Virus record (IMG/VR): IMGVR_UViG_3300046457_000143
Coordinates: 1 to 64,000 of that record
Direction: 5' to 3' (one strand)
DNA from: a virus
Length of the DNA: 64,000 nt
Positions within the stretch are counted from its first letter, which is position 1. Every line of letters starts with the position of its first letter. The translations under genes were made by a program, and so were the position numbers. Below are positions 1 to 62,786 of the stretch, piece by piece. Below the pieces are notes generated by a model. The model worked only from the letters and a program-made list of their open reading frames with translations, was not told the origin of the DNA and searched no databases.

Positions 1-269
1 TAGTTCCCTGGTTCAAGGTCGGGAAGATGTTCTTCCCGGAAGAGATGAAGCATTCCGTCATCATGGGACGGGCGATGGGCCAGATCAAACTGGTTACCCA
101 GTCGGGCATCAAGGGAAAGGACGACTTCGTGGACACCGTGTCCATGCTGGCCTTCCTCAAACCCTGGAAACCTTCCGATTCAGCGCCGGCCACCCCCGAC
201 GAAGTGAGCATCTACGAGGACGAGGAAGAACGCTCGGAACCTAGTGGGCTGTCTTCCTACATCGTGTGA
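1..269 (+). CDS. Terminase large subunit, C-terminal fragment (N4 gp68-like; 5' end outside window)
   Basis: GKDDFVDTVSML is a nuclease-domain 'DD..D' motif; acidic tail ends SSYIV; lies directly upstream of the gp67-like gene as in N4. Confidence 0.85.
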   Translation, partial: VPWFKVGKMFFPEEMKHSVIMGRAMGQIKLVTQSGIKGKDDFVDTVSMLAFLKPWKPSDSAPATPDEVSIYEDEEERSEPSGLSSYIV

Positions 270-276
270 GGTAGAG

Positions 277-981
277 ATGAATATCCAGGAACTGTTTGCC
301 GACCTCTCCTTTGGAGAGTTGTCGAGCCTCACCCTGGCTCAGGAGGGTGCCGGTCTTATCACCGACGCCGGTAAGGAGCGGGTGATCCGCTTTGCCAATG
401 AGGGGCTGCTCAAGCTCTATGCCCGGTACGTCCTGAAACAGAATGATGTGCTCATCGAGACGGTGGACTGGATCACCCAGTATCACCTGCTCAGGAAGTT
501 CGCTGAGTCGTCGGCGGGCACCTCGACCCAGCCGGTCCTGTACATCAAGGATCTGTACCGGGAGCCGTTCCAGGAAGATGTGATCCGCATCCTGAGCGTG
601 TTCAACAGCTACGGCTGCGAGCTTCCGCTGAACGACGAGGGCAACCCACTCTCGGTTTTCACGCCGCAGGGCAATGTGCTCCAGGTGCCGCGCCCGGAAT
701 GCGGGGTGGCCCTGAGTGTCAGCTACCAGGCAAAGCATCGCCTGCTGACACTTGCAGACCTGACCCAGGAGATCGAGCTGCCCGAAGTGCTCAGGCCCGC
801 CTTGCGCGCCTGGATTGCCTCCGGCATTTTTGGTCAGGTCAACACGCAGGAGTCCCAGGCGATGGCACAGGGTCATCTGGCCAGCTATGAGGCTACCTGT
901 AGCGAGGCACTGCAGCAGGATCTGGTGAGTACCAGTACTTCAACCACAAGCAACCGATTCCATAAAAACGGATGGATCTGA
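277..981 (+). CDS. Virion head-tail adaptor (N4 gp67-like)
   Basis: GAGG then ATG at 277; N-terminus LF.DLSFGELS; synteny after terminase. Confidence 0.75.
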   Translation: MNIQELFADLSFGELSSLTLAQEGAGLITDAGKERVIRFANEGLLKLYARYVLKQNDVLIETVDWITQYHLLRKFAESSAGTSTQPVLYIKDLYREPFQEDVIRILSVFNSYGCELPLNDEGNPLSVFTPQGNVLQVPRPECGVALSVSYQAKHRLLTLADLTQEIELPEVLRPALRAWIASGIFGQVNTQESQAMAQGHLASYEATCSEALQQDLVSTSTSTTSNRFHKNGWI

Positions 982-982
982 C

Positions 983-3955: not shown

Positions 3956-3960
3956 TCATG

Positions 3961-3981: not shown

Positions 3982-4001
3982 CCTGAACCAGGAAAAAGAA
4001 C

Positions 4002-6488: not shown

Positions 6489-6498
6489 GGACAAGAAA

Positions 6499-7584
6499 AT
6501 GACGGACGTTATCCCTCCGATTGATGTGCCTTCCGGCACATCCCCGAGCTTTGCCGACTTTCTCGGCTCCAACCCGCATCTGCTGAATCACTCCAGTGGC
6601 AGTGTGGACGGTCTGACAGCACCCCCGGAAGATGGGGATTCTGGTTCTGGTTCGTCGGCAGAGATCGATGCACTCCTCGCCCAGATCTCACCGTCGCCGG
6701 GTGCCAGCAAGATTCCCCGTGCGCGACCATCCGGCACCCTTGCTCCTTCCTGGCTCGACGTTGATGAGATGGCTGCCGCACTCGACGGCAAGGTCGGTGG
6801 AGGTGTCACGCCAGATGAAATGAACGCCGCGGTTGCTGCGGCTGGTGCTTCTGCTACCACGGCAACTCAACGTGCTGCCGATGCAGGTGCCAGCGCGAGC
6901 GCAGCGCATACCAGCGAGCTCAATGCTGCGCAGAGCGCAACGTCACTGTCCGCAGGTCTGGCCTCGTTCAACAAGAACTGGCTCGGCCCCCATGCTACGG
7001 ACCCGGTCACTGACAACCAGGGTCAGCCGCTGATCATCGGCGCACGGTACCAGAACACCACCGGCACGCCCAATGTGATCCGGGTCTACACGTCCACCGG
7101 CTGGCAGGATGAAGATGCGACGGCAGAAGCGGCCAGCGCCAACGCAACGCTGGCTGCAACCCAGGCTGCCTCGTCCGCTGCTGCGGCGTCGGGAAGTGCA
7201 GCTGCGGCGGCTGCCTCGGCTACGATCGCCCTGCGTGGTGTGTCGGCCAACACGCTGACGGCTGCACTGAACCTGGCTGCAGCAATTGGCGCCACGGCCA
7301 GTACCTCGTTCAATCTGGGTACTGCCCTGGGCGCACTGGCGCTGCAGCTGAAGGCCGACAACCAGCTGGTGGGGAACCAGAACTACGAGATCAAGCTCTT
7401 CGACGGCAGTGCGGCCGGCACGCTCCTGTATCAGGCAAGCGGCATCACCGATCAGCACTTCGCAGATAACGCCTGCTTCTTCATTCCGCCGCTCACGTCT
7501 GGCAACCTGTTCGTGCTCGTCACGAACATCGACGCCAATGCGATGACGCTGAACCTGACGATCAAGCTCCTGGGGATCCAATGA
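6499..7584 (+). CDS. Tail fibre/adaptor protein, Ala-rich
   Basis: GAGG then ATG at 6499; WLGPHATDPVTDNQGQPLIIGARY motif of podophage fibres between Ala-rich helical stretches. Confidence 0.6.
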   Translation: MTDVIPPIDVPSGTSPSFADFLGSNPHLLNHSSGSVDGLTAPPEDGDSGSGSSAEIDALLAQISPSPGASKIPRARPSGTLAPSWLDVDEMAAALDGKVGGGVTPDEMNAAVAAAGASATTATQRAADAGASASAAHTSELNAAQSATSLSAGLASFNKNWLGPHATDPVTDNQGQPLIIGARYQNTTGTPNVIRVYTSTGWQDEDATAEAASANATLAATQAASSAAAASGSAAAAAASATIALRGVSANTLTAALNLAAAIGATASTSFNLGTALGALALQLKADNQLVGNQNYEIKLFDGSAAGTLLYQASGITDQHFADNACFFIPPLTSGNLFVLVTNIDANAMTLNLTIKLLGIQ

Positions 7585-10517
7585 CCGCACTCGTCAAATA
7601 CACCGATGCGGTGCTTATCCAGAGCAGCGAGACCTGGGAGGGTGTTGGCACGAACTTCCGGGACAACCGCTCCCAGTGGTTCAATATCAATGATGCTGGC
7701 ATCTCCCTGTCAGCCGGCGCCTTCACGATTCCGCCCAGCACGCATGTGGCCAACAGTGACTGGGTGCGGGATGCCGGGCCGAACACGATCGACGCCAGCC
7801 TGCAGGAAAAGCGGGCCTTCTGCCTGAAGGGCGCAGTCACGATCAACTTCACCGGTACCACCCTTGTGTTGCGTGTGAACACGGACTGGGGCTGGGGCAA
7901 TGCCCATAAGGTCTACATCGACGGGGTGCAGCCTTCGACCATCGGCGGGATCCAGGGCTATGCGAATACGGTATCCTGCGACTCGGCAGGCTATGGCCTG
8001 GAAGGTCCGGGTTACGCTGATGTCATGGTGGCCGATGGTCTGTCCAATGGTCCGCATACCTGCGTGGTGTATGCGAACGGGACGGGGGAGGGCTACTTCG
8101 CCATCGCCGGCTTCAAGACGTACAGCTTCGCCAGCAATGCGCTGGTCAAGGCCACGGCCTGGATTGTGCCGAGTGCGACGAAGCTCCCGCAGAACATGCA
8201 GACGCTGTCGATGATCAACAAGGGCGTGAACACGGTCCTGAATGCCACCCTGTCCTATCCGGCAGGGTTGCTCGATGGCAACGCCAATGCGCTGGTCGCC
8301 GGCAGTGTCGGCTCGCTCACCGGCATCAACCCGCTGACCCAGGTGGTCATGCCGGCGTTCAACGGCGACGAGTCGAGCGGCCAGCGCACGTATCCGCTGA
8401 CGCTGTCGGCGCTCTACGCCGATCCGGCCGGTACCGTCTCCATGCCGGCCACGGCCTCGATTGGTCCGAGCAGCCCGACGCTGACCATCGGTGGCAGCAC
8501 CTGGGCGGTGGATAACGCGGCACCGGGCGGTGTCAAGCGGATCTACTCCAAGGCCAACCCCGGCACCATCAATTACCTGCAGTTCACCTTCACTGGCGAT
8601 GCGCTGACGATGACGGTGCAGCAGGACTTTGGTTACGGGGTTCTCGGGATCTACGACTCGACGGGTACCACTCTCCTTGGTTCCGTGACCTGCAATGCAC
8701 AGCAGACCCAGCTCTTTACCACGACGATCACGGGCTTTGGTGCAGGCAGCCACACGGTGCGGCTGAAGAAGACCACCACGGACACGTCCAAGTACGTGAT
8801 CTTTGTCTCGGCCTCGTGGACGACGACCTCGAACTATTCGCAGATCACCGAGACTGTGAACCTGGTGATGAATGCCCAGCAGCCGTATGCGCTGCAGCCG
8901 GTCAATGTCGGCAGCGATGGCTACTCGCTGACCTACGATCCGCCGGTGCCGGGTGCAACGGATTCGTCGGGCTCAACCGTGCGGCAGAACTCCAACCTGG
9001 CCTATACCGAGGTGCTCGAGCGTTTTCCGACCTACGCGGTGTGTTACCAGCCGGGCTACTCCGACATCCTGTCGCAGTACGACATCCTGATCGTCGATCC
9101 GTTTGCGGCGAAGACGGCCGATGTGCTCGCCTGGCAGGCCATGGGCATCGAGGTCTACGGCTACATCTCGATCGGGGAGGAGGACGGTTTTTACGTGAAC
9201 CGGTACGATTTCCTGTCGGCCAATGCGCCGTACCGGGGTGACGGTACCGGGCCGGGCGGCAATGCCGGCTACTACATGAAGGGCGGCTACCAGGGCCGGG
9301 AGTGCACCGAGTGCACGTTCGACAACCAGGCGGTGGCGGGCACCAAGTCGTGCGCGCAGGCCCAGCCGATGTATTTCATGGGGACCGGCCGGTGTGGCTC
9401 CGCCTGCAGTTACGACAGCCTGAACGGATACACCACGTTCGCGGCAGGCGGGGCATGCGGTGCAGGCTTCACGTCAGCCAACAAGTGGATCCGCCCGGAC
9501 GCGAACACCGCGTGCACGAACGCCACCTGCCCGAGCTACAAGCCGATCCACCAGCTGCAGACGGGTACGAAGTGTCCGAAGTACGAGCAGGCCGACGCCG
9601 GCTACATGCAGGATTTCAGCATCGCCAACCCCGGCACGCCGGACCAGAACGGCGTGTGGGCGGCGTACTACGCAGATGCTGGTGATGCTTCCTGGCTCGA
9701 TCGCATCATGAGCTACTACGCACCGACCGTGATCGGCGGGCCGGTGGTGGTCGCCAATGAGGTGGTGACGGTGAAGGCTGCGACGATCGCAGCAGGTGCG
9801 GTGCTGGTGTTTGACACGGCGCAGTTCCCGATCGATCCGGATGCAACGATCACGCTGACCACGCTCGATGGGGTGACGGGTGTCTACCGCAAGAACCTGG
9901 ACTACACGCTGGACATGAAGACGGGCGCCTTCGTCTTCAATGTGGGCATCGCACCTGCAGTCACGGCAGGCCAGCAGCTGAAGATCTCGTACACCAAGAA
10001 GGGCCACCACATGAACGGCATCTTCATGGATACGCCGGATGATGCTGACGTGTATCCGCTGATGGGCGATGCGATGGCGGCGCTCGTGAATAACCTGAAG
10101 GCGAGGACCGGGACGAAGCTGATCTCTAACCGGGGTTTCTCCAACCTGAACAAGTACATCCAGTCCTGCTCGGGTGTGATGTTCGAGTCCTGGCTCACCG
10201 GCTGGAATGAGAACACGGGCGCCTACTTCAAGCTGACTGACCCCGACTCGATGCAGTTCGACAAGGAGGTCAATGACCAGCTGCGTGAGTTGCGCATGAA
10301 GCACGTCTTCGATGTGTACAGCCTGAACTACTGCAATGCCGATGCCAGCGGTGACGAGTTGCGCGCATACTGCTCGACCGAAGACCGGAAGAAGGGTTAT
10401 CTGAGCTGGACCTCGACGATTGCCCTGAATTCGCCGGCACCCAACATCGTGGTGGATACGCCGTCACAGAAGATCACGACCAATGCGTTCAAGCGGTACC
10501 GCATCAAGCGCTATTAA
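7581..10517 (+). CDS. Multidomain protein with a split PelA/GH114-like glycoside hydrolase barrel
   Basis: Motifs in family order: YDILIVDP, VYGYISIGEED, YADAGDASW, GIFMDTPD, ISNRGF, GVMFES, VYSLNY; N-terminal half is beta-sandwich-like. Confidence 0.7.
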   Translation: MTALVKYTDAVLIQSSETWEGVGTNFRDNRSQWFNINDAGISLSAGAFTIPPSTHVANSDWVRDAGPNTIDASLQEKRAFCLKGAVTINFTGTTLVLRVNTDWGWGNAHKVYIDGVQPSTIGGIQGYANTVSCDSAGYGLEGPGYADVMVADGLSNGPHTCVVYANGTGEGYFAIAGFKTYSFASNALVKATAWIVPSATKLPQNMQTLSMINKGVNTVLNATLSYPAGLLDGNANALVAGSVGSLTGINPLTQVVMPAFNGDESSGQRTYPLTLSALYADPAGTVSMPATASIGPSSPTLTIGGSTWAVDNAAPGGVKRIYSKANPGTINYLQFTFTGDALTMTVQQDFGYGVLGIYDSTGTTLLGSVTCNAQQTQLFTTTITGFGAGSHTVRLKKTTTDTSKYVIFVSASWTTTSNYSQITETVNLVMNAQQPYALQPVNVGSDGYSLTYDPPVPGATDSSGSTVRQNSNLAYTEVLERFPTYAVCYQPGYSDILSQYDILIVDPFAAKTADVLAWQAMGIEVYGYISIGEEDGFYVNRYDFLSANAPYRGDGTGPGGNAGYYMKGGYQGRECTECTFDNQAVAGTKSCAQAQPMYFMGTGRCGSACSYDSLNGYTTFAAGGACGAGFTSANKWIRPDANTACTNATCPSYKPIHQLQTGTKCPKYEQADAGYMQDFSIANPGTPDQNGVWAAYYADAGDASWLDRIMSYYAPTVIGGPVVVANEVVTVKAATIAAGAVLVFDTAQFPIDPDATITLTTLDGVTGVYRKNLDYTLDMKTGAFVFNVGIAPAVTAGQQLKISYTKKGHHMNGIFMDTPDDADVYPLMGDAMAALVNNLKARTGTKLISNRGFSNLNKYIQSCSGVMFESWLTGWNENTGAYFKLTDPDSMQFDKEVNDQLRELRMKHVFDVYSLNYCNADASGDELRAYCSTEDRKKGYLSWTSTIALNSPAPNIVVDTPSQKITTNAFKRYRIKRY

Positions 10518-11506: not shown

Positions 11507-12110
11507 AAAGCATGTAGGTATCGGCGGCATAGCGGCGGCAATCATCTCTGCTGTGGTCGCTGTCGAAGGTGGCTACGTTAACGACCCCCATGATCCAGGG
11601 GGCGAGACCAATCACGGCATCACCAAGACGGTGGCCGTCCAGCACGGCTACACCGGGCCGATGAAAAACCTGAGCCAGGAACTGGCCAGCTCGATCTATT
11701 TTGAGGACTACATCAGGAAGCCCGGCTTCGAGCCGTTCCTGGCGTTGTCGCCGGCAGTGGCCCACAAACTGGTGGACGCTGGTGTGAATACCGGCACCGC
11801 CCGTCCTTCCCTCTGGCTCCAGACTGCACTTAACTCCCTGAATCGGGGCGGCCAGGACTTTCCCCCGATATTAGTTGATGGTAAAGTTGGGCCGGCAACG
11901 ATTGTGGCCTACCGCACACTTCAGCGCATAAGAGGCCGTGTTCCAGCGTGCGAAATGGTAATCAAGCTCCTCGATGCACAGCAGGCTGTGTACTACATTT
12001 CTCTAGATAAGTTGAGGGTGTACACGGTGGGCTGGATCACCAATCGTATTCAGAACGTGCCGCTTGCGCGGTGTAAGGATGACGGGGAGAGCACAGATGA
12101 CGCTACCTAG
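11493..12110 (+). CDS. GH108 N-acetylmuramidase endolysin with SAR-like N-terminus (N4 gp61-like)
   Basis: EGGYVNDPHDPGGETNHGIT; VDGKVGPAT peptidoglycan-binding motif; GGAGG RBS. Confidence 0.92.
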   Translation: MAITRKHVGIGGIAAAIISAVVAVEGGYVNDPHDPGGETNHGITKTVAVQHGYTGPMKNLSQELASSIYFEDYIRKPGFEPFLALSPAVAHKLVDAGVNTGTARPSLWLQTALNSLNRGGQDFPPILVDGKVGPATIVAYRTLQRIRGRVPACEMVIKLLDAQQAVYYISLDKLRVYTVGWITNRIQNVPLARCKDDGESTDDAT

Positions 12111-17844: not shown

Positions 17845-17936
17845 AGCCGGCGTGAAGCACTGAACCAGGAGGAAGGAGATTGTCCCCACAGTCTCTTTCC
17901 CTCTGGCTCCAAGTATCTGGAACCCAAGGAAAAGCC

Positions 17937-18638: not shown

Positions 18639-18657
18639 CTGAACCAGGAAAAACAAG

Positions 18658-38731: not shown

Positions 38732-39451
38732 TCAGCCGCCGTAATACGACTTCAGCCGGCCAAACACTTGCTTCAGATCGTTGTCGATATAAAGCTCGTT
38801 GCGATTCCAGAGACCCAGGGCGGAGCGCATCTTTTCCCCCTGGCTCTCCTTGGTGACGCGGGTACAGAAGACGTACTTGACGCCATCCTCGCGCTCCTCG
38901 TCGGTGATGTGCAGCAGATCGTTCTCGATGCTTTCGAGCTTCTTGACCGGCATCTGCTTGGTGCCGAGGATCGTGGTGAAGTCCGCTTCCACGCCGATCT
39001 TGCCGACGGCGCCCTTGATGGGCACCTTCGTCTCGAACGTGGCGGTCTGCTCGTTCACCTGCGTGTCCTCGTGGGCCATGATTGCGTAGTCCTTCGTGCC
39101 GGCCTTGATCTTGTGGATCAGATCCCGGTAGAAGTTGCCGTAGGCGCCCCACGCAGCCTGCGTGTTCACTGCGCCGACCACGTACTGGCGCTCGTACATC
39201 GACATGAGGAACGTGATCGTGTCGAGCACTGCACCCTTCACGTCATTCGTGCCTTCGATCTCGTCGATGTGGTTGAGCACTTCGTATGCGTCGGCCACTT
39301 CGACACTGGCCATGAACTTGTCCCGGAATGGGAGTTCCTTTAGGTCGGTGTTCAGATACACCATCGAGTCCTGCTCCAGGTTCCGAAGCGAGGTGGATTT
39401 CCCCGTGTTCGGTTTGCCCATGATCAGCACGATGTTCTTGTTCTGAGCCAT
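38732..39451 (-). CDS. Sak4-like AAA ATPase (N4 gp44-like)
   Basis: GKPNTGKSTSLRNL; VLDTITFLM. Confidence 0.85.
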   Translation of the reverse strand: MAQNKNIVLIMGKPNTGKSTSLRNLEQDSMVYLNTDLKELPFRDKFMASVEVADAYEVLNHIDEIEGTNDVKGAVLDTITFLMSMYERQYVVGAVNTQAAWGAYGNFYRDLIHKIKAGTKDYAIMAHEDTQVNEQTATFETKVPIKGAVGKIGVEADFTTILGTKQMPVKKLESIENDLLHITDEEREDGVKYVFCTRVTKESQGEKMRSALGLWNRNELYIDNDLKQVFGRLKSYYGG

Positions 39452-42676: not shown

Positions 42677-42724
42677 GAGGAGTCCTCAATGGTGAATGGG
42701 TAGAAGCGGAACCAGGGAAAGACT

Positions 42725-46776: not shown

Positions 46777-46791
46777 AGCTCTTCCTCTGGT

Positions 46792-48102: not shown

Positions 48103-48163
48103 GTAGGAGTCCTAATAGGGATACGCCCCTGACCGGAGCCAGGGGGACAAACAGATGGGGGAG

Positions 48164-49068: not shown

Positions 49069-51090
49069 CTAGGCAGCCAACTTCTTCTTGAGGCGGTAGA
49101 CCTGGTCCTTAGACAGGCCCGTCTTTCTGGCCACCTCGATGTTGCTAAGTCCCTGATCAAGCAGGGCAAGTGCTTCCGTCTGCTTGTCCCCGGTGGTGAT
49201 CACCTCGGTCTTCTGGCCCTTGGGGGTGCTTTTGCTCACGGCCTTCACAGGCTTGGGAGCGTTTACCGGTGCGGGTTTCGCGCCGAGTACTGCATCGAGT
49301 GTGACGGCTGTGTTCTCCGGCAGACCCAATGCTGTCCAGCTCTTGCGGGACTGCTTCTTGAGTGCCTTCAGATCTTGCGCAGCTGCCGCACGTTCGATTT
49401 CAGTTTTTGCCTTGTTGACTGCCTGAAGGAGGGCGGTAGCCTTGTCTTTCTGGCTCAACGTGCCGGTGCTTTCCACGGTCGATTCTGCCTTGTCCCCCAA
49501 TGTTTCTTTGGGGTCATTTGACATAATAAAGATTATCGAAGCCAAATCGTGGGGCTGTTCGGCAGGGGTTTCCGGTGCCTCGACAGCCGGCTTGACCAGA
49601 TCTTCAGCCTTGACATCGGGCGCTACCGGCAGCTTCGCCTCCAGTGCTTCGGTCATGTCGAGTGCCGAGGCGGCACCGCTGATCGGCGCCGGGATCTGTT
49701 CCGCTGAACGCAGGCCCGTGTCCGTGTAGGTCACGTTGGTGCCGCTGTGGCCGCCGACTTCGACGAGCTGCGTGATACCGATGTGGTTGCCACGCAGCAC
49801 GTTGTTCAGCAGCACCGCGCCTTCCGGATCCTGCGAGATCGACACACCCTGATCCACCAGTTGACGCAGTCTGTCCGGCAGCTCAGCGAGGATGTGGTAA
49901 CCCGCCACCCGCATCTTCGTGTGCTCGTACTCCGGCACCGCAAACACGTCTTCCGGACGGAGCTTGGCCATGATCGTCACGTTGCCGCTGAAGCTGCGCA
50001 CGTAGCTCATCACGCCTACATGCAGACCGTTCGAGCACGAGTTGCGGCGGTTCGGATCGACCAGGTGCGGCAACAGGTAGACGTAGCTGCCGACCTTCTG
50101 ACGGATCTTGCCCGTGTGCACGTCGACGAAGACACCCTTCTCGGCACGGTTCAGCTTCTTGTAGATGACGATGGAACCGTCATCGGCAATCGGCAGATCG
50201 CCCTTCTCGATGAATTTCATCAGGTCTTCGACGCTGTGCCCACGCTGGTCGATGATGGCCGACAGGCGCTCGATGAAGCGCGTGAATCCAGCGTAGTTCT
50301 GGAGCTTCTCCGACTGGCGAAGGTGACGGGCGAGCTTCTGCGCATCCGGCACGATGGCACCGGTCTCCGTGTGCAGGGCGACGATCGTTTCCGTCTTCTC
50401 GTCGAGCGGCGTGTGAAACTCGGCACGCTCCGTGCCCACACTGTTGCCGACCAGCTGCTGCATGCGGTCTTTTGCGACCGCCAGCTTTTCGGCATTGGTC
50501 ACTTCCCTGACGTACCCGGTGGCAGGATCGACCTTGACGCTGAGGTTTGTCGGGTAGACTAGCGTGGCCTGACCGGTAGTTGCGTTTTCCTTTTGCGTAG
50601 CCGTAGCTTCATCAGCCACAGCCGGCGTCGGATCTGCAGGTTCATCCTCTTCCTTGGTTCCCTGGTTCGTCGCTTCCTTGGGCACATGGTGAATGCCCAT
50701 GCCCGAGTCCACCACTTCGAACTTCGACTCCGGCTGGCCCGGAAATACGCCGATCGAGAGCGGCGAGATGTACGCCACTTCTTCCGGCACGGCCACCGGC
50801 GACTCCGTGTTGACGAGCTTCTTCAGGAAGCTCTTGGCCACCTTGAAGAACTTGATCACACCACCGGTACCCTTCTCCGCTGCGCCGAACTCGCTGCGCA
50901 CGATGTGCACCGGCGTGATATCGACAGCTGCCGGCTTTCCCTGTGCGAGCAGCTCCTTGGAGGCACTCACGATACCCGGCAGGCGTGCATCACCCTGAGC
51001 CAGGGTGAGCGTGCTGCCGTCCTGGAAATACAGCACGGCGTAACGGGTATCGACCGACAGTGCCACGATGGTGACGAGGTTATTGTTCAT
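49069..51090 (-). CDS. rIIB: rIIB-like protein
   Basis: LPIADDGSIVIYKK; VDPNRRNSCSNGLHV; PEDVFAVP...KMRV; C-terminal HTH. Confidence 0.88.
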   Translation of the reverse strand: MNNNLVTIVALSVDTRYAVLYFQDGSTLTLAQGDARLPGIVSASKELLAQGKPAAVDITPVHIVRSEFGAAEKGTGGVIKFFKVAKSFLKKLVNTESPVAVPEEVAYISPLSIGVFPGQPESKFEVVDSGMGIHHVPKEATNQGTKEEDEPADPTPAVADEATATQKENATTGQATLVYPTNLSVKVDPATGYVREVTNAEKLAVAKDRMQQLVGNSVGTERAEFHTPLDEKTETIVALHTETGAIVPDAQKLARHLRQSEKLQNYAGFTRFIERLSAIIDQRGHSVEDLMKFIEKGDLPIADDGSIVIYKKLNRAEKGVFVDVHTGKIRQKVGSYVYLLPHLVDPNRRNSCSNGLHVGVMSYVRSFSGNVTIMAKLRPEDVFAVPEYEHTKMRVAGYHILAELPDRLRQLVDQGVSISQDPEGAVLLNNVLRGNHIGITQLVEVGGHSGTNVTYTDTGLRSAEQIPAPISGAASALDMTEALEAKLPVAPDVKAEDLVKPAVEAPETPAEQPHDLASIIFIMSNDPKETLGDKAESTVESTGTLSQKDKATALLQAVNKAKTEIERAAAAQDLKALKKQSRKSWTALGLPENTAVTLDAVLGAKPAPVNAPKPVKAVSKSTPKGQKTEVITTGDKQTEALALLDQGLSNIEVARKTGLSKDQVYRLKKKLAA

Positions 51091-53569
51091 CTGCTTTTCC
51101 TTTCATGGCGCTCATGACGAGCGATTTGATTGCCGCTTTGCGGTCGGGAAACTTCTTGATCATTTCAAGCGGTTCGCTGAACGTGAAAAGGAACCGGCCG
51201 AGCATTTCGTCCTTCTTGATGAGCTGCACCTTCTGGACGAAAGCCGGCTCTTCCAGCTTCTGCTGCTTGATGGCAAGGATCGGTGCACAGTCATCGGCCG
51301 ACTTGCCGAGGTAGCTGGCAAGGTCGCTGACCTTCGCGTATTCGAGGCGATTGCACAGACGCTCCATCGCCGGATCGACACGCAACTTGTCGTAGCCGGG
51401 CAGCTTCACGCCGAGGTACTGCAGCAGCTCAACCTGATCCGGACGAACGTTGTACTGTTCTTCCAGCGCATTGAGCCGATGCTTGGTGCGGTACGTGGTG
51501 AATGCCGGATCCTGCACTGCATCCCACAGCTTGCGGCCGAGGTAGCGGGTGACATCGATGGCCCCACGCTTGATGGCCATGTTCTTCTCGATGCCGTTGC
51601 GCACGACCACACCGTGTTCCCTCTCCTCCTGGCTCAGATCCACGTAACCACCGTAGTGACTGAGCGAACCAGTGGAAGAGACACTGTCCACGTCGATATA
51701 GAAAAGCGGCGTGTCAGTCGTCACCAGGCCAGACTTCATCTGCTTGATGCGGTAGATGTCCATCTTGCGAACACCCTCGTCCGTGTAGACGTTCGAGAGC
51801 GACATCAGCGCATTGGCCGTCTTCTGCTTCGACCCGGTAGCAACCGTCACCGGACTCTTGCGATTGGCGTTGCGCCGCTCGTTTTCCTCCCGGATCTCCG
51901 CTGCTCCGTCATCCCACTCATGGTTGAGTGTCAGGTCAACGACCGTCATCCCGGCATCGGTAAATGCCTTGACGATGGCGTCCTTGTTCTTGCAGATCGG
52001 CTCGATCTTGTAGACCCAGGTCTGCGGACGTTCCATGATCGCCATGTCCGGGCAGCACTCGATGCTCATCTGGAGCTTGCGGGTGCGACTCGTCACGAAC
52101 ACGGTCGGCCGGTCGATGAGCATCCGGATCCGGTCGAACTCCTCGACATCCATGTAGCTCATCAGGGGTTGCCACCTGACCACAGCACCGGAGTGGATGA
52201 ACCGTTTGGCGTGGTACATCTGCTCGGGCTTGAGCAGTTCCCGGTTCGCCAGGAACACACGCGAGAGTGGGCGCAGGATGAAGTGACGGGCAAAGGCCTG
52301 CTTCATCTCGACCTGGCGCGTCCAGTGTGCACCCCGAAGACGGGTACGCAGGTGGTGATAGGCCTTCGTGGCGGCCTTGTTGCTGAAGACCGTCGCACGC
52401 TTGAAACCTGCATGCTCGGCTTCCCGCAAGGCACGCTCGTACTTCGCCCACTTCGCTGCACCGATCGGGTTGGACAGATATCGCTGCACCGCATACGGCT
52501 CGATGAAGTTGGAGAGGGGTGCCCGCGCTTCCAGTGTCTGGCGACTGGACAGTCCCTGCTTCAGCTTGTCGATGGCGTTTTTGATCGCACCGGGGATCTG
52601 CCTGAGAATGTCTTCCTCGATGCGGGCAACGAGGGCGACACACAGATCGACAATGCCGTTCTCCGTCATCTTCGAGCTCGAGAGCGACTCACGGGAAGGC
52701 GTGAGTGCCAGCGTGCCTGGTGCGGCCTGGATGACCATACGGCCGAAGCCGACGATCTCCATGAACTCCAGCAGGAGCTTGGTGGCCTCATGCGTGCCTG
52801 GCGTCATCAGCATCGGGTAGATCACCGCACCGTAACGCACGAACAGCTTGTGGTTGCCCATGTAACGGTCGTACCAGTTGTCGCTGTTCACATCGTAGGA
52901 ACCAGGAGTGGAATCCAGCCCCAGGATCCTGAGCTTCATCGGCTCTTCGAAGTGACCTTCACGCATGAGCGTGGCGTTCATGTCGCCGTGCATCACCACG
53001 TAACGGATGTAGAGCAGGATCTGGTCGACGTGTTCTGCCTGCAACTGGATCCTGACCGTGATGCCGCTTTCTTCGGTCGGCACCGACATGACTGTCTGGA
53101 TGGCTGGCAGGCCACCCGTTTCAACGCTGGCTTTCGTCAGGTTGTAGATGGTCTTCGTTCCCTGGTTCTGGTTGATCACCCGGAACGATTCGACATAGGC
53201 CCACGGCGACTTGGCACCGAGGCCAAAACCACCGGTGACCATGAGCTTCTTGCGCTTGTCGCTGCCGCCATACGTGCCATAGACGACCGGGAACTTCTCC
53301 TTGGGGATGCCAAGGCCGGCGTCCTTGATGACCAGCTCCAGTGACTCGGTGATGGTGATCTGCAGCGGCGTGTCCGTCGTGCCAGCTTCGATGTTGGCGT
53401 CCCATGCGTTGCACAGGACTTCACGGATCATGGCGAGCTGCTGGTTCGAGTACAGGTTGGACGAAAGCATCATCAGGAAGCCTGCGTCCTCGACCATGCC
53501 AACCGCTACTGTTTCCTGCGCACCGAGCGTGGCTGCGGTGGCTTGCCCTTGGGCGTCTGCGACTTCCAT
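51080..53569 (-). CDS. rIIA: rIIA-like protein (GHKL ATPase N-terminus)
   Basis: LYSN..AMIREVLCNAWDA; DAGLGI; GGFGLGAKSPWAY. Confidence 0.9.
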   Translation of the reverse strand: MEVADAQGQATAATLGAQETVAVGMVEDAGFLMMLSSNLYSNQQLAMIREVLCNAWDANIEAGTTDTPLQITITESLELVIKDAGLGIPKEKFPVVYGTYGGSDKRKKLMVTGGFGLGAKSPWAYVESFRVINQNQGTKTIYNLTKASVETGGLPAIQTVMSVPTEESGITVRIQLQAEHVDQILLYIRYVVMHGDMNATLMREGHFEEPMKLRILGLDSTPGSYDVNSDNWYDRYMGNHKLFVRYGAVIYPMLMTPGTHEATKLLLEFMEIVGFGRMVIQAAPGTLALTPSRESLSSSKMTENGIVDLCVALVARIEEDILRQIPGAIKNAIDKLKQGLSSRQTLEARAPLSNFIEPYAVQRYLSNPIGAAKWAKYERALREAEHAGFKRATVFSNKAATKAYHHLRTRLRGAHWTRQVEMKQAFARHFILRPLSRVFLANRELLKPEQMYHAKRFIHSGAVVRWQPLMSYMDVEEFDRIRMLIDRPTVFVTSRTRKLQMSIECCPDMAIMERPQTWVYKIEPICKNKDAIVKAFTDAGMTVVDLTLNHEWDDGAAEIREENERRNANRKSPVTVATGSKQKTANALMSLSNVYTDEGVRKMDIYRIKQMKSGLVTTDTPLFYIDVDSVSSTGSLSHYGGYVDLSQEEREHGVVVRNGIEKNMAIKRGAIDVTRYLGRKLWDAVQDPAFTTYRTKHRLNALEEQYNVRPDQVELLQYLGVKLPGYDKLRVDPAMERLCNRLEYAKVSDLASYLGKSADDCAPILAIKQQKLEEPAFVQKVQLIKKDEMLGRFLFTFSEPLEMIKKFPDRKAAIKSLVMSAMKGKADEQ

Positions 53570-56143: not shown

Positions 56144-56634
56144 CAGAACCTCCGTTTTCCCTGATAGAAGGCGAGCTTGGCTTTCGCCCGCTCGGTTTTC
56201 TTGCTGGCCAGGGCGCCGTTCTTTGCCCTTGGTTCCGGTTCATCCTGAGCCAGCGGAGGAAGACGGGCTTCCATGGCCAGCAGCTCGTCGATCAGACCGG
56301 GGTTGCTGAACGGTCCCTGAACGCCGATCCCTTTGATTCGTACCGGCTCGGTGTAGATGTCGTCGATGATCATCATCTGGACCTCACCTTTTTCCATCCA
56401 GATCTTGCGGCCGATGCACACCGAGGTGAGGTCACCGTAGCCAGGCGTGGCGAAGTCCACGCCCAACACAAGCTGTTCGAGAAAGGACTTGCCAGGTTCG
56501 CGGATCTGCGAAGCGAGCATGCGTTTCTCGATCTCTGCAAAGTCGAGCTGGTCGAGCCATTCGAGCGTCCTGCGGTGATAGTTCTCCAGCATGATCTCGG
56601 GCTTGTAGAGGGAGACGAATTCGCTGAATTTCAT
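56143..56634 (-). CDS. Hypothetical protein
   Basis: ATGA coupling; LDFAEIEKR motif. Confidence 0.65.
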   Translation of the reverse strand: MKFSEFVSLYKPEIMLENYHRRTLEWLDQLDFAEIEKRMLASQIREPGKSFLEQLVLGVDFATPGYGDLTSVCIGRKIWMEKGEVQMMIIDDIYTEPVRIKGIGVQGPFSNPGLIDELLAMEARLPPLAQDEPEPRAKNGALASKKTERAKAKLAFYQGKRRF

Positions 56635-56870: not shown

Positions 56871-56879
56871 CCCTGGCTC

Positions 56880-57194: not shown

Positions 57195-57209
57195 GTCCTG
57201 CTCCTTGGT

Positions 57210-57665
57210 TCAGGCCGCTACTGCGTCCTGTGCAACTTCGATCGGCATGTGGTAGATCGGGCAATTGCCGTCCTTTTCCTCGCCGTACCAGCACAACAGG
57301 TGTTGGCCCGCCTGGTTGCGCTTCCACATCTTGCCGGGGTACACACCGGAAGGGATCGACGTGTCGTAGCTCGATAGCTTCTTGAAGTCCTGCGGATCGA
57401 GCAGTGCCTTGCCGTCACGGATGAAAATCATCTGACGGTCAGGCTGCGACCAGTGTTTGCCGAGCGGATCGGTCATCTCGGGGATGATGTCGACACCGTT
57501 CATCGGCTTGGCCGTACCGTCGATCGCTTCCTTGCGCTTGACATCGGCACGCACGTTGCGAATGTGTTGCAGCAGGCTTTCCTCGCTGAACGGATGGCCT
57601 TCGATGGTGTGGTGGTTGCCCAGCCACGTCTCAATCTGGTCCAGCAGTTTGTCGTTCGTCTTCAC
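57210..57665 (-). CDS. Hypothetical phage protein (GTG start at 57665 preferred over 57713)
   Basis: GGGAG RBS; IPEMTDPLGKHWSQP...YDTSIPSGVYPGKMWK. Confidence 0.7.
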   Translation of the reverse strand: MKTNDKLLDQIETWLGNHHTIEGHPFSEESLLQHIRNVRADVKRKEAIDGTAKPMNGVDIIPEMTDPLGKHWSQPDRQMIFIRDGKALLDPQDFKKLSSYDTSIPSGVYPGKMWKRNQAGQHLLCWYGEEKDGNCPIYHMPIEVAQDAVAA

Positions 57666-57898: not shown

Positions 57899-57906
57899 AT
57901 ACGATC

Positions 57907-58187: not shown

Positions 58188-58653
58188 ACCGTTGATGCTC
58201 CTTCGTCTGGTGAAACACGACCTGAGCGATCGCGGCGCCCTGCGGAATGACCAGGCCACCGCTGCCGTGGTAGACGAGTTCGAGTGTCAGGAATCCCTTC
58301 CACCCTGGCTCGATCACGGTATTGAATACGCTCAGGCCTTGCCGTGCCCAGGTGGACTTGTCGTGCACGATGCCGATCATGTCGGTCGGCATGTCGAACT
58401 CTTCGATGGCCGAGGCGATGATGAACTGACCGTGCGAGCGGCGGTAAGCGGTCACCTTCCCTTCCTGGTTCCGCTCGGTCGAGATCACGTACCGCTCGCT
58501 CCAGCTCTTCTGCACGAACTGGATCTCCTGCTTGATACGGATGTCGTATCCCGCTTCACCCAGGCCACGGCTGACGCCATGCTCGTGCACCTTGTAGCCG
58601 ATCATGTCCTTGATCGGCTGCCTGAGAACCAGTCCTACTCCGTTTATCACCAT
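58129..58653 (-). CDS. dcd: dCTP deaminase (N4 gp26-like)
   Basis: GYDIRI; HDKSTWARQGL; IEPGWKGFLTLE; YDGKYQNQ. Confidence 0.92.
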   Translation of the reverse strand: MVINGVGLVLRQPIKDMIGYKVHEHGVSRGLGEAGYDIRIKQEIQFVQKSWSERYVISTERNQEGKVTAYRRSHGQFIIASAIEEFDMPTDMIGIVHDKSTWARQGLSVFNTVIEPGWKGFLTLELVYHGSGGLVIPQGAAIAQVVFHQTKEHQRYDGKYQNQRDEPVSAIASV

Positions 58654-58659
58654 GTTGGG

Positions 58660-59805
58660 TCACTCGCTGATGTGGACTACGTCACCGAAGCTGGGCGTGT
58701 GTCCGTGCTTGCTCTTCAGACACACCCACAGAACCGGAATCTCATCCAGACCGGTGGGGTCCATCGGTGAGCATTCCATGTCGGAAAAGATGATAGCAGC
58801 GGTCGGCTTCTCTTCCAACATATCTCTACGGACACAGTCCAGACTCGTACCTCCCCGACCGATGATTTCGAGTTTCTCGAACTCGTCGTCTTCTTCCCAC
58901 ACGTCGATCCGCTGGATCTTCGTGTCGAACTGGACCACGGAAAGTTTTTCCGGTCGGAACGTGTCTTTCACAAACTTGAGTTCGGATTTGAACCGCACCG
59001 CATGACTCATGCGGATCGATCCTGACACGTCGATGTACCAGCGCAGGTTTTCCAGCCGGCCCATCTCCAGCTTGCGGCCGGGCAGGTAGATGTCATCGAA
59101 GCGGCGATTGGGCTTGGCCCAGGTGTAGTCCTCGTCGAGCAGCTCCGAGAACCAGCGCTGCAGCACGGTCTGCCAGGGAATGACCGGCTTCAGGAACTGT
59201 TCAACCAGCTCCCTGATATCACCGGGGACATGCCCTGCCCCGCTCATCTTCGCGTGCTGGATGGCGGTCACCACCTTGGACACCACCTGATTCTTCTTGG
59301 CGTTGTCCATCGGGAACATGTCCACGCCGGTGCCCGGCCCCCATGCGCCGAAGTTCGGTACTCGGGGTTGGGCCATGATCTTGTCGTAGACATCTTCTTC
59401 GGCCATGCCGTCGTACTGGCTATCGAGCAATCCGCCGAACTTGAAGTCGCACCGCTCCTTCTCCAGATCGCCGTTGATGATGTAGTCGCAGGCCTGATTC
59501 CATCCTTCCGGATCGCGGTTGCCGGCCCGCACCATGTGCAGCCGTGCGACGTGCCACAGCTCATGACGCAGCACCGTGTTGCGGTTCTCCGGAGCCAGGG
59601 TGAGAAACCAGTCCGGGTTCCACCAGAGGTTGATGCCGTCGGTGGCCGCCGTGGGAATCTCCCGCGTCCAGGCGAACTCCAGGCTCGACATGATCGAGCC
59701 GAGGAAAGCCGCCGTATCCGACTTGAGAAACACACTGCTCTTCGTAATGTCGAGCAGCTTGTTCAGGACGCGTAGATCCATGCTGGCCGGGTCGGCAGCT
59801 TGCAT
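58660..59805 (-). CDS. HEXXH metallopeptidase-like plus VWA domain protein (N4 gp25-like)
   Basis: TAATDG; HELWH; DVSGS MIDAS motif; GRGGT; FSD. Confidence 0.9.
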   Translation of the reverse strand: MQAADPASMDLRVLNKLLDITKSSVFLKSDTAAFLGSIMSSLEFAWTREIPTAATDGINLWWNPDWFLTLAPENRNTVLRHELWHVARLHMVRAGNRDPEGWNQACDYIINGDLEKERCDFKFGGLLDSQYDGMAEEDVYDKIMAQPRVPNFGAWGPGTGVDMFPMDNAKKNQVVSKVVTAIQHAKMSGAGHVPGDIRELVEQFLKPVIPWQTVLQRWFSELLDEDYTWAKPNRRFDDIYLPGRKLEMGRLENLRWYIDVSGSIRMSHAVRFKSELKFVKDTFRPEKLSVVQFDTKIQRIDVWEEDDEFEKLEIIGRGGTSLDCVRRDMLEEKPTAAIIFSDMECSPMDPTGLDEIPVLWVCLKSKHGHTPSFGDVVHISE

Positions 59806-59820
59806 ACTCTTCTCCTTGGT

Positions 59821-60036
59821 TCAAAAAATGGCAATGCGGCCGTCGCTGTCCTGGCCATCGAGACGATTGCCCCACTTGATGTCCAGCTGCGCCGGGCGGG
59901 GATAGATCCACGAGACACTGCGGCAGCTCTCGGTCTGACATTCCAGACCCAGGTTTGCCTCCGCATCGCTCGTGAAGATCTTGAACAGCTCCCCGCCGCA
60001 ACCCCCGCACTTCATCTGCTTGAGGTCGGTGTACAT
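59821..60036 (-). CDS. Small Zn-ribbon protein, 71 aa
   Basis: CGGCG...C.TESC; sits exactly between the ATPase and VWA genes. Confidence 0.65.
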   Translation of the reverse strand: MYTDLKQMKCGGCGGELFKIFTSDAEANLGLECQTESCRSVSWIYPRPAQLDIKWGNRLDGQDSDGRIAIF

Positions 60037-60038
60037 GC

Positions 60039-61082: not shown

Positions 61083-61096
61083 GCCTTCCAGGTTCC

Positions 61097-61741: not shown

Positions 61742-61846
61742 GTTAGGACTCCTTGTTTGTCATGGCACAAATGGTGCCATAGCAATCTTCGAACCCAATG
61801 TGTGCTGTCACACATTCACACTGTTCACTCCATCTGACACCACAGA

Positions 61847-62056
61847 TCAGTAGTTCCCATCCAGCAGGATGTGGGCAGCTGCCTTCGACAGATTGACATT
61901 GACTATCTCATCCATCGGAAGTGTCTGATGCAAACCCAGTTTGGCCAGCTCAGCTTCGAGCATCTCTTTGGCTTCTGCCTGCGTGGATGCCACCATGACG
62001 GCAGCAGTACCCACCGGCCAAAAGCCTTTGAACCCCGTACAGGTGTATAGCTTCAT
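61847..62056 (-). CDS. Hypothetical protein
   Basis: F.GFWPVGTAAVMVA...ILLDGNY. Confidence 0.7.
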   Translation of the reverse strand: MKLYTCTGFKGFWPVGTAAVMVASTQAEAKEMLEAELAKLGLHQTLPMDEIVNVNLSKAAAHILLDGNY

Positions 62057-62430
62057 AGGTCACTCACGTCCTTGGCGAGCAGCTTTTCCTTCGTCAGCAT
62101 ATCCAGAGGACTGTCCCCGCCGTTGTAGTAGATGCAGTTGTAGGGCTGGATCGTGGTGAGATCCAGATCGAAGCCGCTGGCCGCTGCCAGCTCGATGAAC
62201 TGTTTAAGACCTTGCGGAGCCAGGGAGCCGAGATGCAGCCCGTAGATGTTCTCGCGCTCACTCAGCGACTTGTTCGAGTTGTAGTCGACATAGAGCAGCG
62301 TGCCGTCATAGGTGACGGACAGTTCGCTCTTTTCGTTCCATAGGTTCTCGTTCGCTTCCTCGCTTTCTTCCTCGCTCAGAGGCTTCAGCAGGACGGCGAC
62401 GAAGCCGTACTGACGCACTGTGCTGCTCAT
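62053..62430 (-). CDS. Hypothetical protein
   Basis: AAGGAG RBS; ATGA overlaps at both ends. Confidence 0.7.
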   Translation of the reverse strand: MSSTVRQYGFVAVLLKPLSEEESEEANENLWNEKSELSVTYDGTLLYVDYNSNKSLSERENIYGLHLGSLAPQGLKQFIELAAASGFDLDLTTIQPYNCIYYNGGDSPLDMLTKEKLLAKDVSDL

Positions 62431-62786
62431 ACCTTCTCCTTGGCTCGGCTGGCTCGCCGGCGTTGATTCTTCAGATGGGAAACCAGCTCCAGGTGAACTG
62501 GGTTACAGCAGAGCCGGTGGAAACACAGGTGATCGATCTGCTTCTTGCCGGGGATGTAGCCGAAGTAGTGGGTGTACACCACGAGGTGCACAGCCACGGT
62601 CTGCCCATTCAGGGACATGCGGCCGTAACCACCGCCCTTCCCTTCCCCGCTTGTCGGCCCTTGCCAGATGTGGCAGGGACTGGGCATGCCGTCGACCTCG
62701 AAGCCCATGTCCACCACCAGCACCCGCTCCATGATCCGTTCGATGATGGAGACCCGGCGCTCGGTCTGTGGAGCCAGGGTGCTCAT
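62427..62786 (-). CDS. HNH endonuclease (N4 gp22-like)
   Basis: CHIWQG; GGYGRM; IDHLC..RLCCNPVHLELV. Confidence 0.88.
   Translation of the reverse strand: MSTLAPQTERRVSIIERIMERVLVVDMGFEVDGMPSPCHIWQGPTSGEGKGGGYGRMSLNGQTVAVHLVVYTHYFGYIPGKKQIDHLCFHRLCCNPVHLELVSHLKNQRRRASRAKEKV

Follow-up and report, generated by a model that had tools for sequence, protein, structure and literature searches.

Primases of the archaeo-eukaryotic primase (AEP) type require a helix-bundle domain, adjoining the catalytic domain, for template binding and dinucleotide formation (PMC2965215). In ORF904 of plasmid pRN1, the helix-bundle domain recognizes the template word 5'-GTG-3', and primers have a unit length of about 8 nucleotides (nt) (PMC8718748). 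The same article, citing Zhu et al. 2017, describes the AEP primase-polymerase of phage NrS-1 as recognizing 5'-TTTGGTTA-3' and starting at the first base upstream. For the gp4 primase of phage T7, PMC12839067 gives the site 5'-(G/T)(G/T)GTC-3' and states that flanking sequence modulates its use. Here we describe a dispersed element, first noticed as the word CCCTGGYTC (GARCCAGGG on the opposite strand). It occurs in a divergent member of the N4-like Schitoviridae with 59% GC, for which the only sequencing run listed is the rhizosphere metagenome of its origin. The DNA analyzed, hereafter the window, comprises bases 1 to 64000 of the 77,934-bp contig IMGVR_UViG_3300046457_000143. We tentatively propose that the element is the preferred template recognition and initiation site of the phage's own primase, a homologue of N4 gp43, a reading that we favor over the others weighed below but hold as no more than a serious possibility.

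Like the present element, the NrS-1 site joins a pyrimidine run, TGGTT, and one variable base. The dialects to be set beside it are TGGTTC in N4 and the clade of this phage, TGGTTT in LUZ7, TGGTTA in Vibrio phage 1.261.O, and TTTTGGTTC in low-GC relatives; the NrS-1 site is identical to the dialect of 1.261.O. Both the NrS-1 enzyme and the proposed reader gp43 are AEP primases with a helical template-binding domain, and NrS-1 starts just 5' of its site, a position taken here by the pyrimidine tract. In contrast, NrS-1 has a single copy of the 8-mer, within a small TGGTTA cluster adjoining its primase gene, whereas the present element is dispersed at about one copy per kb. The domain order also differs, with the ATPase of gp43 being N-terminal, and the NrS-1 enzyme additionally uses GTG(A/G) (PMC8718748). 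Because the two enzymes cannot be aligned and NrS-1 has only a single 8-mer, we regard the parallel as functional and not as close homology. By simple arithmetic, about 1 in 2000 random 8-mers would fit YYTGGYTN. In NrS-1 itself (L030, a Nitratiruptor phage), TGGTTA occurs four times over the two strands in a cluster at 17166-17440, just after the primase-polymerase gene, and one occurrence is part of the complete TTTGGTTA; this is plausibly an origin region.

The PriCT_1 helical domain of gp43 occupies a position equivalent to that of the helix bundle in pRN1 ORF904. The pRN1 system differs in its three-letter word, which is found on a plasmid, and in a C-terminal helicase of superfamily 3, compared with the MCM-like N-terminal domain of gp43. 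We know of no genome-wide selection for the ORF904 word. The primases of T7 and T4 use short template words on either strand, the 3' part of which is not copied, with a template pyrimidine specifying the purine that begins the primer. The T4 gp61 site is 5'-GYT-3', and the core of the present element includes G-Y-T. The T7 word TGGTC yields the primer ACCA, which is near the RCCA to be expected here were synthesis to begin within the word. However, the T7 and T4 enzymes are of the DnaG/TOPRIM type and gp43 is of the AEP type, T7 sites are barely enriched, and neither phage has a long tract of defined length. Chi and the DNA uptake sequences are also short, nonpalindromic words that reach high copy number in coding DNA by selection or drive and settle in permissive frames. 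Those words belong to cellular genomes, and Chi is strand-polar, whereas the present word is phage-specific and strand-symmetric, and the host of the model phage lacks it.

Enrichment and anatomy of the element

The contig, whose two ends are identical over 127 bp (contig 1-127 and 77808-77934), assembles a genome that is circularly permuted or terminally redundant; its unique length is 77,807 bp. Late-type genes lie on the plus strand from 1 to 36.4 kb and beyond 74.1 kb, and early/middle genes lie on the minus strand between these two blocks. A vRNAP open reading frame (ORF) of 3834 codons spans 24942-36446(+).

A preliminary description, made from the letters alone, had listed 26 copies of CCCTGGYTC in the window, and we recovered every one at the position and on the strand given (Table 1). 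The chance copy number, taken from dinucleotide-preserving shuffles, was 1.64 +/- 1.37 with a maximum of 5. Across the whole genome there are 28 unique copies, including two beyond the window at 74442(-) and 74471(+). We also built two coding nulls, one in which synonymous codons were permuted within genes while proteins were held fixed and another in which codon order was permuted. The enrichment withstood the codon-preserving shuffle by which the preliminary description had proposed to judge it, with 22 coding copies against about 5 (synonymous) or about 2 (codon order). The one-off variants reported as frequent were enriched as well: TCCTGGYTC (18 versus 3.8), CCTTGGYTC (19 versus 2.1), and CTCTGGYTC (9 versus 1.4). 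When all three leading positions are allowed to be either pyrimidine, the genome contains 83 copies of YYYTGGYTC (15 expected), 68 of them in the window, and every one of the genome's most repeated 11-mers is a form of this element.

The word first noticed makes up just the 3' portion of a longer element. Its positions 1 to 3 tolerate T, the sequence upstream is pyrimidine-rich, and M-G is favored downstream. An extended upstream tract had been described by eye, and it proved real: among 146 TGGYTC hexamers, 35 are preceded by an unbroken run of 8 or more pyrimidines, where 0.3 would be expected. Conversely, TGGYTC without any upstream pyrimidine is depleted (26 versus 56.5 expected). Tract length is bimodal, with a second mode at 9-10 nt in this phage and in three relatives (L001-L003, introduced below), whereas in Delftia phage RG-2014 this mode is 9 nt exactly (17 sites). 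At every tract position C and T are nearly interchangeable, and information reaches background by position -10; the sole degenerate position of the TGGYTC core is also a pyrimidine. The full element is thus Y9-10 followed by TGGYTC (plus M-G), about 18 nt in all, and half of it is constrained by base class alone.

Copies occur inside genes in several reading frames and in both orientations, as well as in intergenic spacers, in line with the preliminary description. Sense copies mostly read xCC-CTG-GYT-C (S/T/P-L-A/V) and antisense copies mostly encode N-Q-G, which are the least harmful frames for the word. All six combinations of frame and orientation are enriched in this phage, in N4, and in LUZ7. 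Enrichment beyond the codon nulls and in all six contexts therefore indicates a signal that acts on nucleic acid and not on proteins, which supports the earlier suggestion of a dispersed DNA-level signal.

Lineage-specific dialects and conservation

To place the element among its relatives, we used IMG/VR genomes found through the helicase (89-35% identity; 38-58% GC), together with Delftia phage RG-2014 (L016 and L021), roseophage DSS3phi2 (L027), and 150 kb of Escherichia coli K-12 (L024-L026). E. coli, the host of the model phage N4, served as host control. Hexamers were ranked without bias over all 2080 hexamers. The IMG/VR relatives were enriched for YYYTGGYTC, mostly 2- to 5-fold, and the low-GC ones read TTTTGGYTC. 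Under the codon-preserving null, both orientations were enriched in RG-2014 (12 versus 1.8 and 15 versus 3.7), in Pseudomonas phage Meara (10 versus 1.1 and 9 versus 3.9), and in N4.

In the complete genome of coliphage N4, GAACCA ranks 1 of 2080 (220 versus 93, z = 13). The preliminary description knew of no such motif for N4; our literature searches likewise found no description of the word in N4-like phages, but N4 itself carries the signal as its top hexamer. In LUZ7, the first and second ranks go to AAACCA (z = 17) and AAGCCA (z = 10) and GAACCA is depleted, while AAACCA is in turn depleted in N4. The top hexamer of the N4-like Vibrio phage 1.261.O is TAACCA. N4 and LUZ7 carry the word as a bare hexamer, about 4 per kb, and its flanks hold no information. 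In the high-GC clade of the present phage, the bare hexamer is barely enriched (1.1- to 1.4-fold), and selection is on the long-tract form. New here are this high-GC form with its 9-10-nt tract constrained by class only, the embedding in start regions, the codon-controlled strand symmetry, and the MCM-AEP-PriCT build of gp43 (the last three described below). AAGCTC in DSS3phi2 was considered as a sister dialect and dropped as an artifact of palindrome avoidance, given that AAGCT is not enriched overall and AAGCTT is avoided. In that genome AAGCTT, a HindIII-type palindrome, is essentially absent, which inflates AAGCTC and AAGCTG under Markov models.

In the E. coli sample GAACCA is depleted (57 versus 93, rank 2044 of 2080), and in T7, which shares its host with N4, the word is unenriched (31 versus 38). 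With neither enriched, the word is a property of the phage lineage, not of the host or of host repair, and the pattern points to a phage-encoded reader with drifting specificity. As a side observation, depletion in E. coli amounts to 0.61-fold for GAACCA and 0.68-fold for GAGCCA, and the site density of N4 is about sixfold above that of its host.

Conservation was assessed in L001-L003, whose nucleotide identity to the phage is 70-84%. The TGGYTC core was intact at 47-62% of aligned sites, compared with 25-38% of control hexamers (P = 0.03 to 0.07 per relative, the three comparisons not being independent). Changes within retained sites remain inside the consensus and other sites are lost, a pattern of turnover under modest purifying selection.

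Placement, spacing, and strand symmetry

About 80% of copies are single and internal to ORFs, in both orientations. A smaller set (about 9 in the window, about 14 genome-wide) lies at translation start regions, where the opposite strand reads GARCCARGR plus purines 7-9 nt upstream of the start codon. In these copies the Shine-Dalgarno purines provide the tract, and RG-2014 has the same arrangement. As a whole, however, the element does not form a class of translation-initiation regions, since about 80% of copies are elsewhere and 0 of the 36 listed N4 GARCCARRR copies is at a start region.

With 83 sites in 77.8 kb, each strand has about one site every 1.9 kb. Two inverted pairs spaced by about 67 bp (26893/26959 and 48068/48136) had been singled out. 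Both are present, but the number of pairs within 120 bp does not exceed the chance expectation in this phage (16 versus 13.5), N4 (129 versus 137), or LUZ7 (149 versus 170), so that the two are unremarkable. In these three genomes we found no clustering and no favored spacing or orientation class. Regular spacing was considered and rejected (coefficient of variation of 0.90 versus 0.98 for random placement, not significant).

Raw strand counts along the genome axis are about 2:1, at 55:28 here, 23:13 in N4, 25:11 in RG-2014, and 25:10 in Meara. This bias disappears under the synonymous-codon control, and a genome-axis strand bias was accordingly rejected: against the synonymous-shuffle expectation, orientations are equal in genes of either strand (2.3- to 3.1-fold in N4; 3.0- to 3.2-fold in LUZ7). 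The raw ratio arises from purine-rich sense strands and from the start-region copies. Strand symmetry argues against polarity of the kind seen in Chi or in FtsK-orienting polar sequences (KOPS), against one-directional replication, and against a signal for the direction of injection.

Separate from the dispersed copies, arrays of GAACCAAG with an 8-bp period occur beyond the window at contig 68500-68560, 69854-69886, and 74927-74943. The genes whose 5' leaders contain them are a parA-like gene, an ORF ending at 69863(-), and an ORF starting at 74954(+). A two-unit tandem is present at 50652-50668, inside the rIIB-like ORF. These arrays have a core in common with the dispersed motif and may be operator or centromere-like sites. 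The dispersed copies, being single and unclustered, do not resemble ParG- or omega-type arrays of tandem 7-8-bp units.

The gp43-type primase as candidate reader

Family-wide, the sequence-reading proteins are the vRNAP (hairpin promoters), RNAPII, and the gp43 primase. The primase ORF of this phage contains a Walker A motif (G72-x-G-K-G76), a Walker B motif (D171-E172), a D530-x-D532 motif, and a Pfam PriCT_1 domain at residues 659-719. In an alignment of 11 gp43 sequences, Walker A, Walker B, and DxD are invariant and the PriCT_1 region is present. The best fold match of the C-terminal half of an AlphaFold model was the AEP domain of S-2L PrimPol (Foldseek probability of 1.0, E = 0.013), followed by LigD polymerase domains and the MPXV E5 primase. 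Residues 10-387 match MCM ATPase domains (Z of 10-11, 240-270 residues aligned, root mean square deviation of 4.4-6.3 A). Searches of the gp43 sequence against solved structures, as a single sequence or as a profile, gave nothing significant, and NCBIfam likewise gave nothing. On the model, gp43 appears to be an MCM-like helicase joined to an AEP primase and a helical PriCT domain, in an unusual order with the ATPase N-terminal.

The genome thus encodes what AEP helix-bundle primases use at their sites, an AEP catalytic domain with an adjacent helical domain (PriCT_1, DxD, and the fold match). The word is also dispersed in a way that makes it usable on the single-stranded template of either strand, with orientation symmetry, no clustering, and near-random spacing. 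The Y9-10 tract 5' of TGGYTC, in which C and T are free, would put a pyrimidine at the proposed initiation point and is compatible with a purine-starting primer. The searched literature contained no template specificity for N4 gp43 and no mechanism of lagging-strand priming in N4.

Homologues of gp43 are confined to Schitoviridae. Enterobacter phage SonariX was considered as a carrier that is not N4-like and was dropped: this 248-kb "partial genome" (L023, PQ898399.1) has an N4-like block at one end, where a vRNAP-sized ORF of 10.9 kb accompanies the gp43-type primase, and it looks like a composite of more than one phage.

A proposed model for primase recognition

From these data we infer gp43 as the reader, the place where synthesis starts, and a purine primer as the product. 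At the replication fork, the PriCT domain would bind 5'-TGGYTC(M-G)-3' on the single-stranded template. Synthesis would start at the first base 5' of TGGYTC and copy the 9-10-nt pyrimidine tract. The product would be a short, all-purine primer of unit length that is then extended by DNA polymerase A. Either strand can be a lagging-strand template, so sites would be selected on both strands genome-wide. Their placement would follow coding cost, favoring frames whose peptides do no harm and the purine-rich Shine-Dalgarno regions upstream of start codons.

The model explains the class-only constraint, which is expected of a pyrimidine template with a purine product and is not what base-specific reading would produce. 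It also covers a tract of defined length, a core with one degenerate Y, strand symmetry, single sites that are dispersed, dialects that differ by lineage, the lack of the word in the host, and placement at low coding cost. A density of about one site per 1.9 kb per strand falls in the usual range of Okazaki-fragment lengths. Among the options that the preliminary description had offered, a primase signal fits best, a base-reading DNA-organizing protein fits poorly with a 9-nt tract constrained by class only, and a Chi/KOPS-like site is not supported.

Several points weigh against priming by gp43. The link between gp43 and the word is inferred from sequence. T7 primase sites are only weakly enriched in T7 (GGGTC, 94 versus 57; others about 1.1- to 1.2-fold) with no strand bias, so that primase recognition alone does not predict a signal this strong; T7 was for this reason set aside as a positive control for primase-site enrichment. 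The GAACCAAG leader arrays are not explained by priming. NrS-1 PrimPol and gp43 could not be aligned (BLASTP E of 0.14 or worse), and the NrS-1 site is not enriched genome-wide. Two Schitoviridae that bear gp43, Vibrio phage VBP32 and DSS3phi2, lacked such enrichment in the hexamer ranking. The gp43 model is of moderate quality (mean predicted local distance difference test score of 68), and its AEP fold match has a weak E value (0.013). Finally, gp43 is restricted to the family, and its co-occurrence with the word cannot separate it from other core genes.

A bolder version, which we regard as speculative and doubtful, is that the word serves as a self-identity mark for replication: gp43 would need a long, rare site that is dense in the phage and lacking in the host (about 4.0 sites per kb in N4 versus 0.67 in E. 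coli). On this view, the phage replisome would prime efficiently only on phage DNA, and the dialects (G-, A-, or T-ARCCA; hexamer or Y9 tract) would coevolve with PriCT. If such a mark exists, no earlier virus family would be known in which a primase encoded by the virus itself shapes oligomer composition across the genome. The main reading, if it holds, would give the family, which includes the classic model phage N4, a testable recognition sequence (TGGTTC in N4, TGGYTT in LUZ7, and Y9-TGGYTC here) and a predicted all-purine primer of unit length, a rare case of a strong imprint of a replication enzyme on coding sequence. Synonymous recoding or codon optimization of N4-like therapeutic phages could unknowingly remove sites. 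The word is in addition a simple signature by which Schitoviridae contigs can be recognized and sorted by lineage.

Alternative explanations

We consider it unlikely that the reader is a duplex-DNA-binding phage protein, either organizing/protective or a global regulator, for which the GAACCAAG leader arrays would be high-affinity operators and the single copies secondary sites. Such a protein would suit a nonpalindromic motif of about 15-18 bp, the positional conservation of some sites, the arrays with the same core just upstream of parA-like and other genes, and the approximately 14 copies that overlap translation start regions. Yet nine tract positions are pyrimidine-only with C and T nearly free, which is unusual for base-specific reading, and the sites are neither clustered nor phased. 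The bare hexamer of N4 and LUZ7 is too short to be a typical operator and, at about 4 per kb, also too dense. The small helix-turn-helix proteins encoded here match only a PHROG family of unknown function and, to our knowledge, are not family-wide in N4-like gene content, unlike the word.

Similarly unlikely is initiation by the T7-like RNAPII on a single-stranded template, with GARCCA as a minimal promoter and the purine run as the initially transcribed sequence. T7-like polymerases start on purine-rich sequence (GGGAGA), which resembles GARCCA followed by GGGRRR. The products would be short RNAs, which might serve as primers, or the activity would help to reel in the genome. According to published work, the minimal promoter of N4 RNAPII spans only -7 to +2 on a single-stranded template, the enzyme is membrane-bound, and genome entry needs middle transcription. 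Against this, the two orientations are equally enriched within genes, and copies do not behave as a class of T7-like promoters, with about 80% inside ORFs in both orientations and not upstream and co-oriented. Published N4 middle promoters are AT-rich, and published ONT-cappable-seq of LUZ7 found four middle starts only, each with a GC-rich hairpin, compared with about 326 AARCCA sites; a motif of the present kind is not among the published LUZ7 starts.

A by-product of context-specific mutation or repair bias or of codon-pair usage, with no selected signal, is very improbable. The roughly threefold enrichment is uniform in every context in N4 and LUZ7, as a mutational bias would have it. However, the host and the phage that shares it lack the enrichment, sister lineages differ in flanking bases and deplete each other's variant, a sharp 9-10-nt mode of tract length is hard to obtain in this way, and cores are conserved above control. 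Codon-pair usage is ruled out by the reverse-complement symmetry.

We give as little weight to an RNA-level element. On this reading, purine copies would make up a longer ribosome-binding region, and pyrimidine copies would anneal to them in mRNA, so that translation is regulated or coupled. About 14 copies do lie 7-9 nt upstream of start codons, Shine-Dalgarno purines included, and the 48136/48068 pair brackets the helicase start. But the remaining approximately 80% are internal, both orientations relative to transcription are enriched, pair distances are no closer than chance, and none of the 36 N4 copies listed above is at a start region.

Scarcely credible is a Chi/KOPS-like polar signal read by a host enzyme or by a phage helicase-nuclease (Dda/RecD-like helicase plus gp42-like exonuclease) that moves in from a genome end: the raw 2:1 strand bias and the phage-encoded superfamily 1 helicase and RecB-family exonuclease would suit it, but the bias is gone under the coding model, with both orientations and both gene blocks equally enriched, the word is depleted in E. 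coli and unenriched in T7, and the same core runs across phages of 38-60% GC whose hosts are necessarily diverse.

Five further resemblances were also rejected once the flanks had been inspected. The spacing of a sigma-54 -24/-12 element fits one copy only, and the 16S rRNA 5' end TGGCTCAG is not common to N4 (mostly TGGTTC) or LUZ7 (TGGYTT). The tRNA T-arm GGTTCGA has the wrong downstream base, and the gyrase cleavage consensus is one base off. Dcm/Vsr effects at CCWGG cannot account for GAACCA or for nonenteric hosts.

Coordinates and minor observations

Table 1. Copies of the element and the candidate reader in the window
Feature	Coordinates	Strand	Context
N4 gp43-type primase, 725 aa	39522..41699	-	phrog_2135 'DNA primase'; proposed reader
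Exact, CCCTGGTTC	6..14	+	precedes ORF 27-269; in assembly overlap, equals 77813
Exact	332..340	+	sense, ORF 244-981(+)
Exact	13177..13185	+	sense, ORF 12624-14813(+)
Exact	23589..23597	+	sense, ORF 22735-24834(+)
Exact	24390..24398	-	antisense, ORF 22735-24834(+)
Exact	25201..25209	+	sense, vRNAP ORF 24942-36446(+)
Exact	26893..26901	-	antisense, vRNAP ORF
Exact	26959..26967	+	sense, vRNAP ORF
Exact	30409..30417	+	sense, vRNAP ORF
Exact	32444..32452	-	antisense, vRNAP ORF
Exact	32899..32907	+	sense, vRNAP ORF
Exact	34567..34575	+	sense, vRNAP ORF; pyrimidine tract 11 nt
Exact	37037..37045	+	antisense, ORF 36778-37392(-)
Exact	37682..37690	-	sense, a (-) ORF; retained in L001
Exact	38838..38846	+	antisense, SSB-like/Sak4-like ORFs (-); lost in relatives
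Exact	42709..42717	-	intergenic; 33 nt upstream of start of exonuclease ORF 41696-42676(-)
Exact	48068..48076	+	antisense, 26 nt into helicase ORF 46792-48102(-); retained in L001, L003
Exact	48136..48144	-	intergenic, precedes helicase ORF; retained in L001-L003 despite diverging flanks
Exact	50660..50668	+	antisense, rIIB-like ORF 49069-51090(-); tandem with 50652
Exact	50997..51005	-	sense, rIIB-like ORF; lost in relatives
Exact	53160..53168	+	antisense, rIIA-like ORF 51080-53569(-); retained in L001-L003
Exact	56871..56879	+	complement adjoins ATG of ORF 56631-56870(-); start-region type
Exact	58303..58311	+	antisense, ORF 58129-58653(-)
Exact	59592..59600	-	sense, ORF 58660-59805(-)
Exact	62217..62225	-	sense, ORF 62053-62430(-)
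Exact	62771..62779	-	sense, ORF 62427-62915(-)
Degenerate, TCCTGGTTC	3985..3993	-	start-region type; complement plus purines 8 nt upstream of ATG, ORF 4002-4331(+)
Two overlapping degenerate, TTCTGGTTC (6639, 6645)	6639..6653	+	ORF 6388-7584(+)
Degenerate, TCCTGGCTC	6748..6756	+	ORF 6388-7584(+)
Degenerate, TTCTGGTTC	7374..7382	-	
Degenerate, CCTTGGTTC	8675..8683	+	ORF 7581-10517(+)
Degenerate, TCCTGGCTC	9690..9698	+	
Degenerate, TCCTGGCTC	10188..10196	+	
Degenerate, TCCTGGCTC	11672..11680	-	
Degenerate, CTCTGGCTC	11811..11819	+	tract 10 nt
Degenerate, CCTTGGTTC	12899..12907	+	
Degenerate, TCCTGGTTC	14000..14008	-	
Degenerate, CTCTGGCTC	15370..15378	+	
Degenerate, TCCTGGTTC	17862..17870	-	start-region type, ORF 17880-18587(+); tract 12 nt
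Degenerate, CTCTGGCTC	17901..17909	+	tract 12 nt
Degenerate, TCCTGGTTC	18641..18649	-	start-region type, 8 nt upstream of ATG, ORF 18658-19539(+)
Degenerate, CCTTGGCTC	20138..20146	+	
Degenerate, TCCTGGCTC	20396..20404	-	
Degenerate, TTCTGGTTC	27725..27733	-	vRNAP ORF
Degenerate, TCTTGGCTC	28346..28354	-	vRNAP ORF
Degenerate, TTCTGGCTC	28514..28522	+	vRNAP ORF
Degenerate, CCTTGGTTC	28549..28557	-	vRNAP ORF
Degenerate, TCCTGGTTC	28774..28782	+	vRNAP ORF
Degenerate, CTCTGGCTC	33346..33354	+	vRNAP ORF
Degenerate, CCTTGGTTC	34813..34821	-	vRNAP ORF
Degenerate, TCCTGGTTC	36110..36118	-	vRNAP ORF
Degenerate, CTCTGGCTC	36626..36634	+	
Degenerate, CTCTGGTTC	39886..39894	+	within primase ORF; retained in L001, L002
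Degenerate, CTCTGGCTC	42353..42361	+	exonuclease ORF; retained in L001, L002
Degenerate, CCTTGGTTC	45597..45605	+	DNA polymerase ORF; reads CCCTGGTTC in L002, L003
Degenerate, CTCTGGCTC	46116..46124	-	DNA polymerase ORF
Degenerate, CTCTGGTTC	46785..46793	+	start-region type, ORF 46237-46776(-); retained in L001
Degenerate, TTCTGGCTC	49448..49456	+	
Degenerate, CCTTGGTTC	50652..50660	+	8-bp tandem with 50660
Degenerate, TCCTGGCTC	51627..51635	+	tract 13 nt; lost in relatives
Degenerate, TCCTGGTTC	52899..52907	-	lost in relatives
Degenerate, CCTTGGTTC	56227..56235	+	retained in L003
Degenerate, CCTTGGTTC	57203..57211	+	start-region type, ORF 56880-57194(-)
Degenerate, TCCTGGTTC	58463..58471	+	tract 11 nt
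Degenerate, CCTTGGTTC	59814..59822	+	start-region type, ORF 58660-59805(-)
Degenerate, CCTTGGCTC	62438..62446	+	start-region type, ORF 62053-62430(-)
Degenerate, CCTTGGTTC	63904..63912	+	tract 13 nt; probable start-region type (GTG start 9 nt on)

Among the relatives, the top hexamers of RG-2014 are the palindromes GAGCTC (78 versus 35), GATATC, and GAATTC, the opposite of the usual avoidance of restriction sites. Beyond the window, the two exact copies at contig 74442-74479 form an inverted repeat, GAGCCAGGG-N20-CCCTGGTTC. This repeat is intergenic, at the point where minus-strand early genes and plus-strand genes diverge, and is probably near the physical genome ends.

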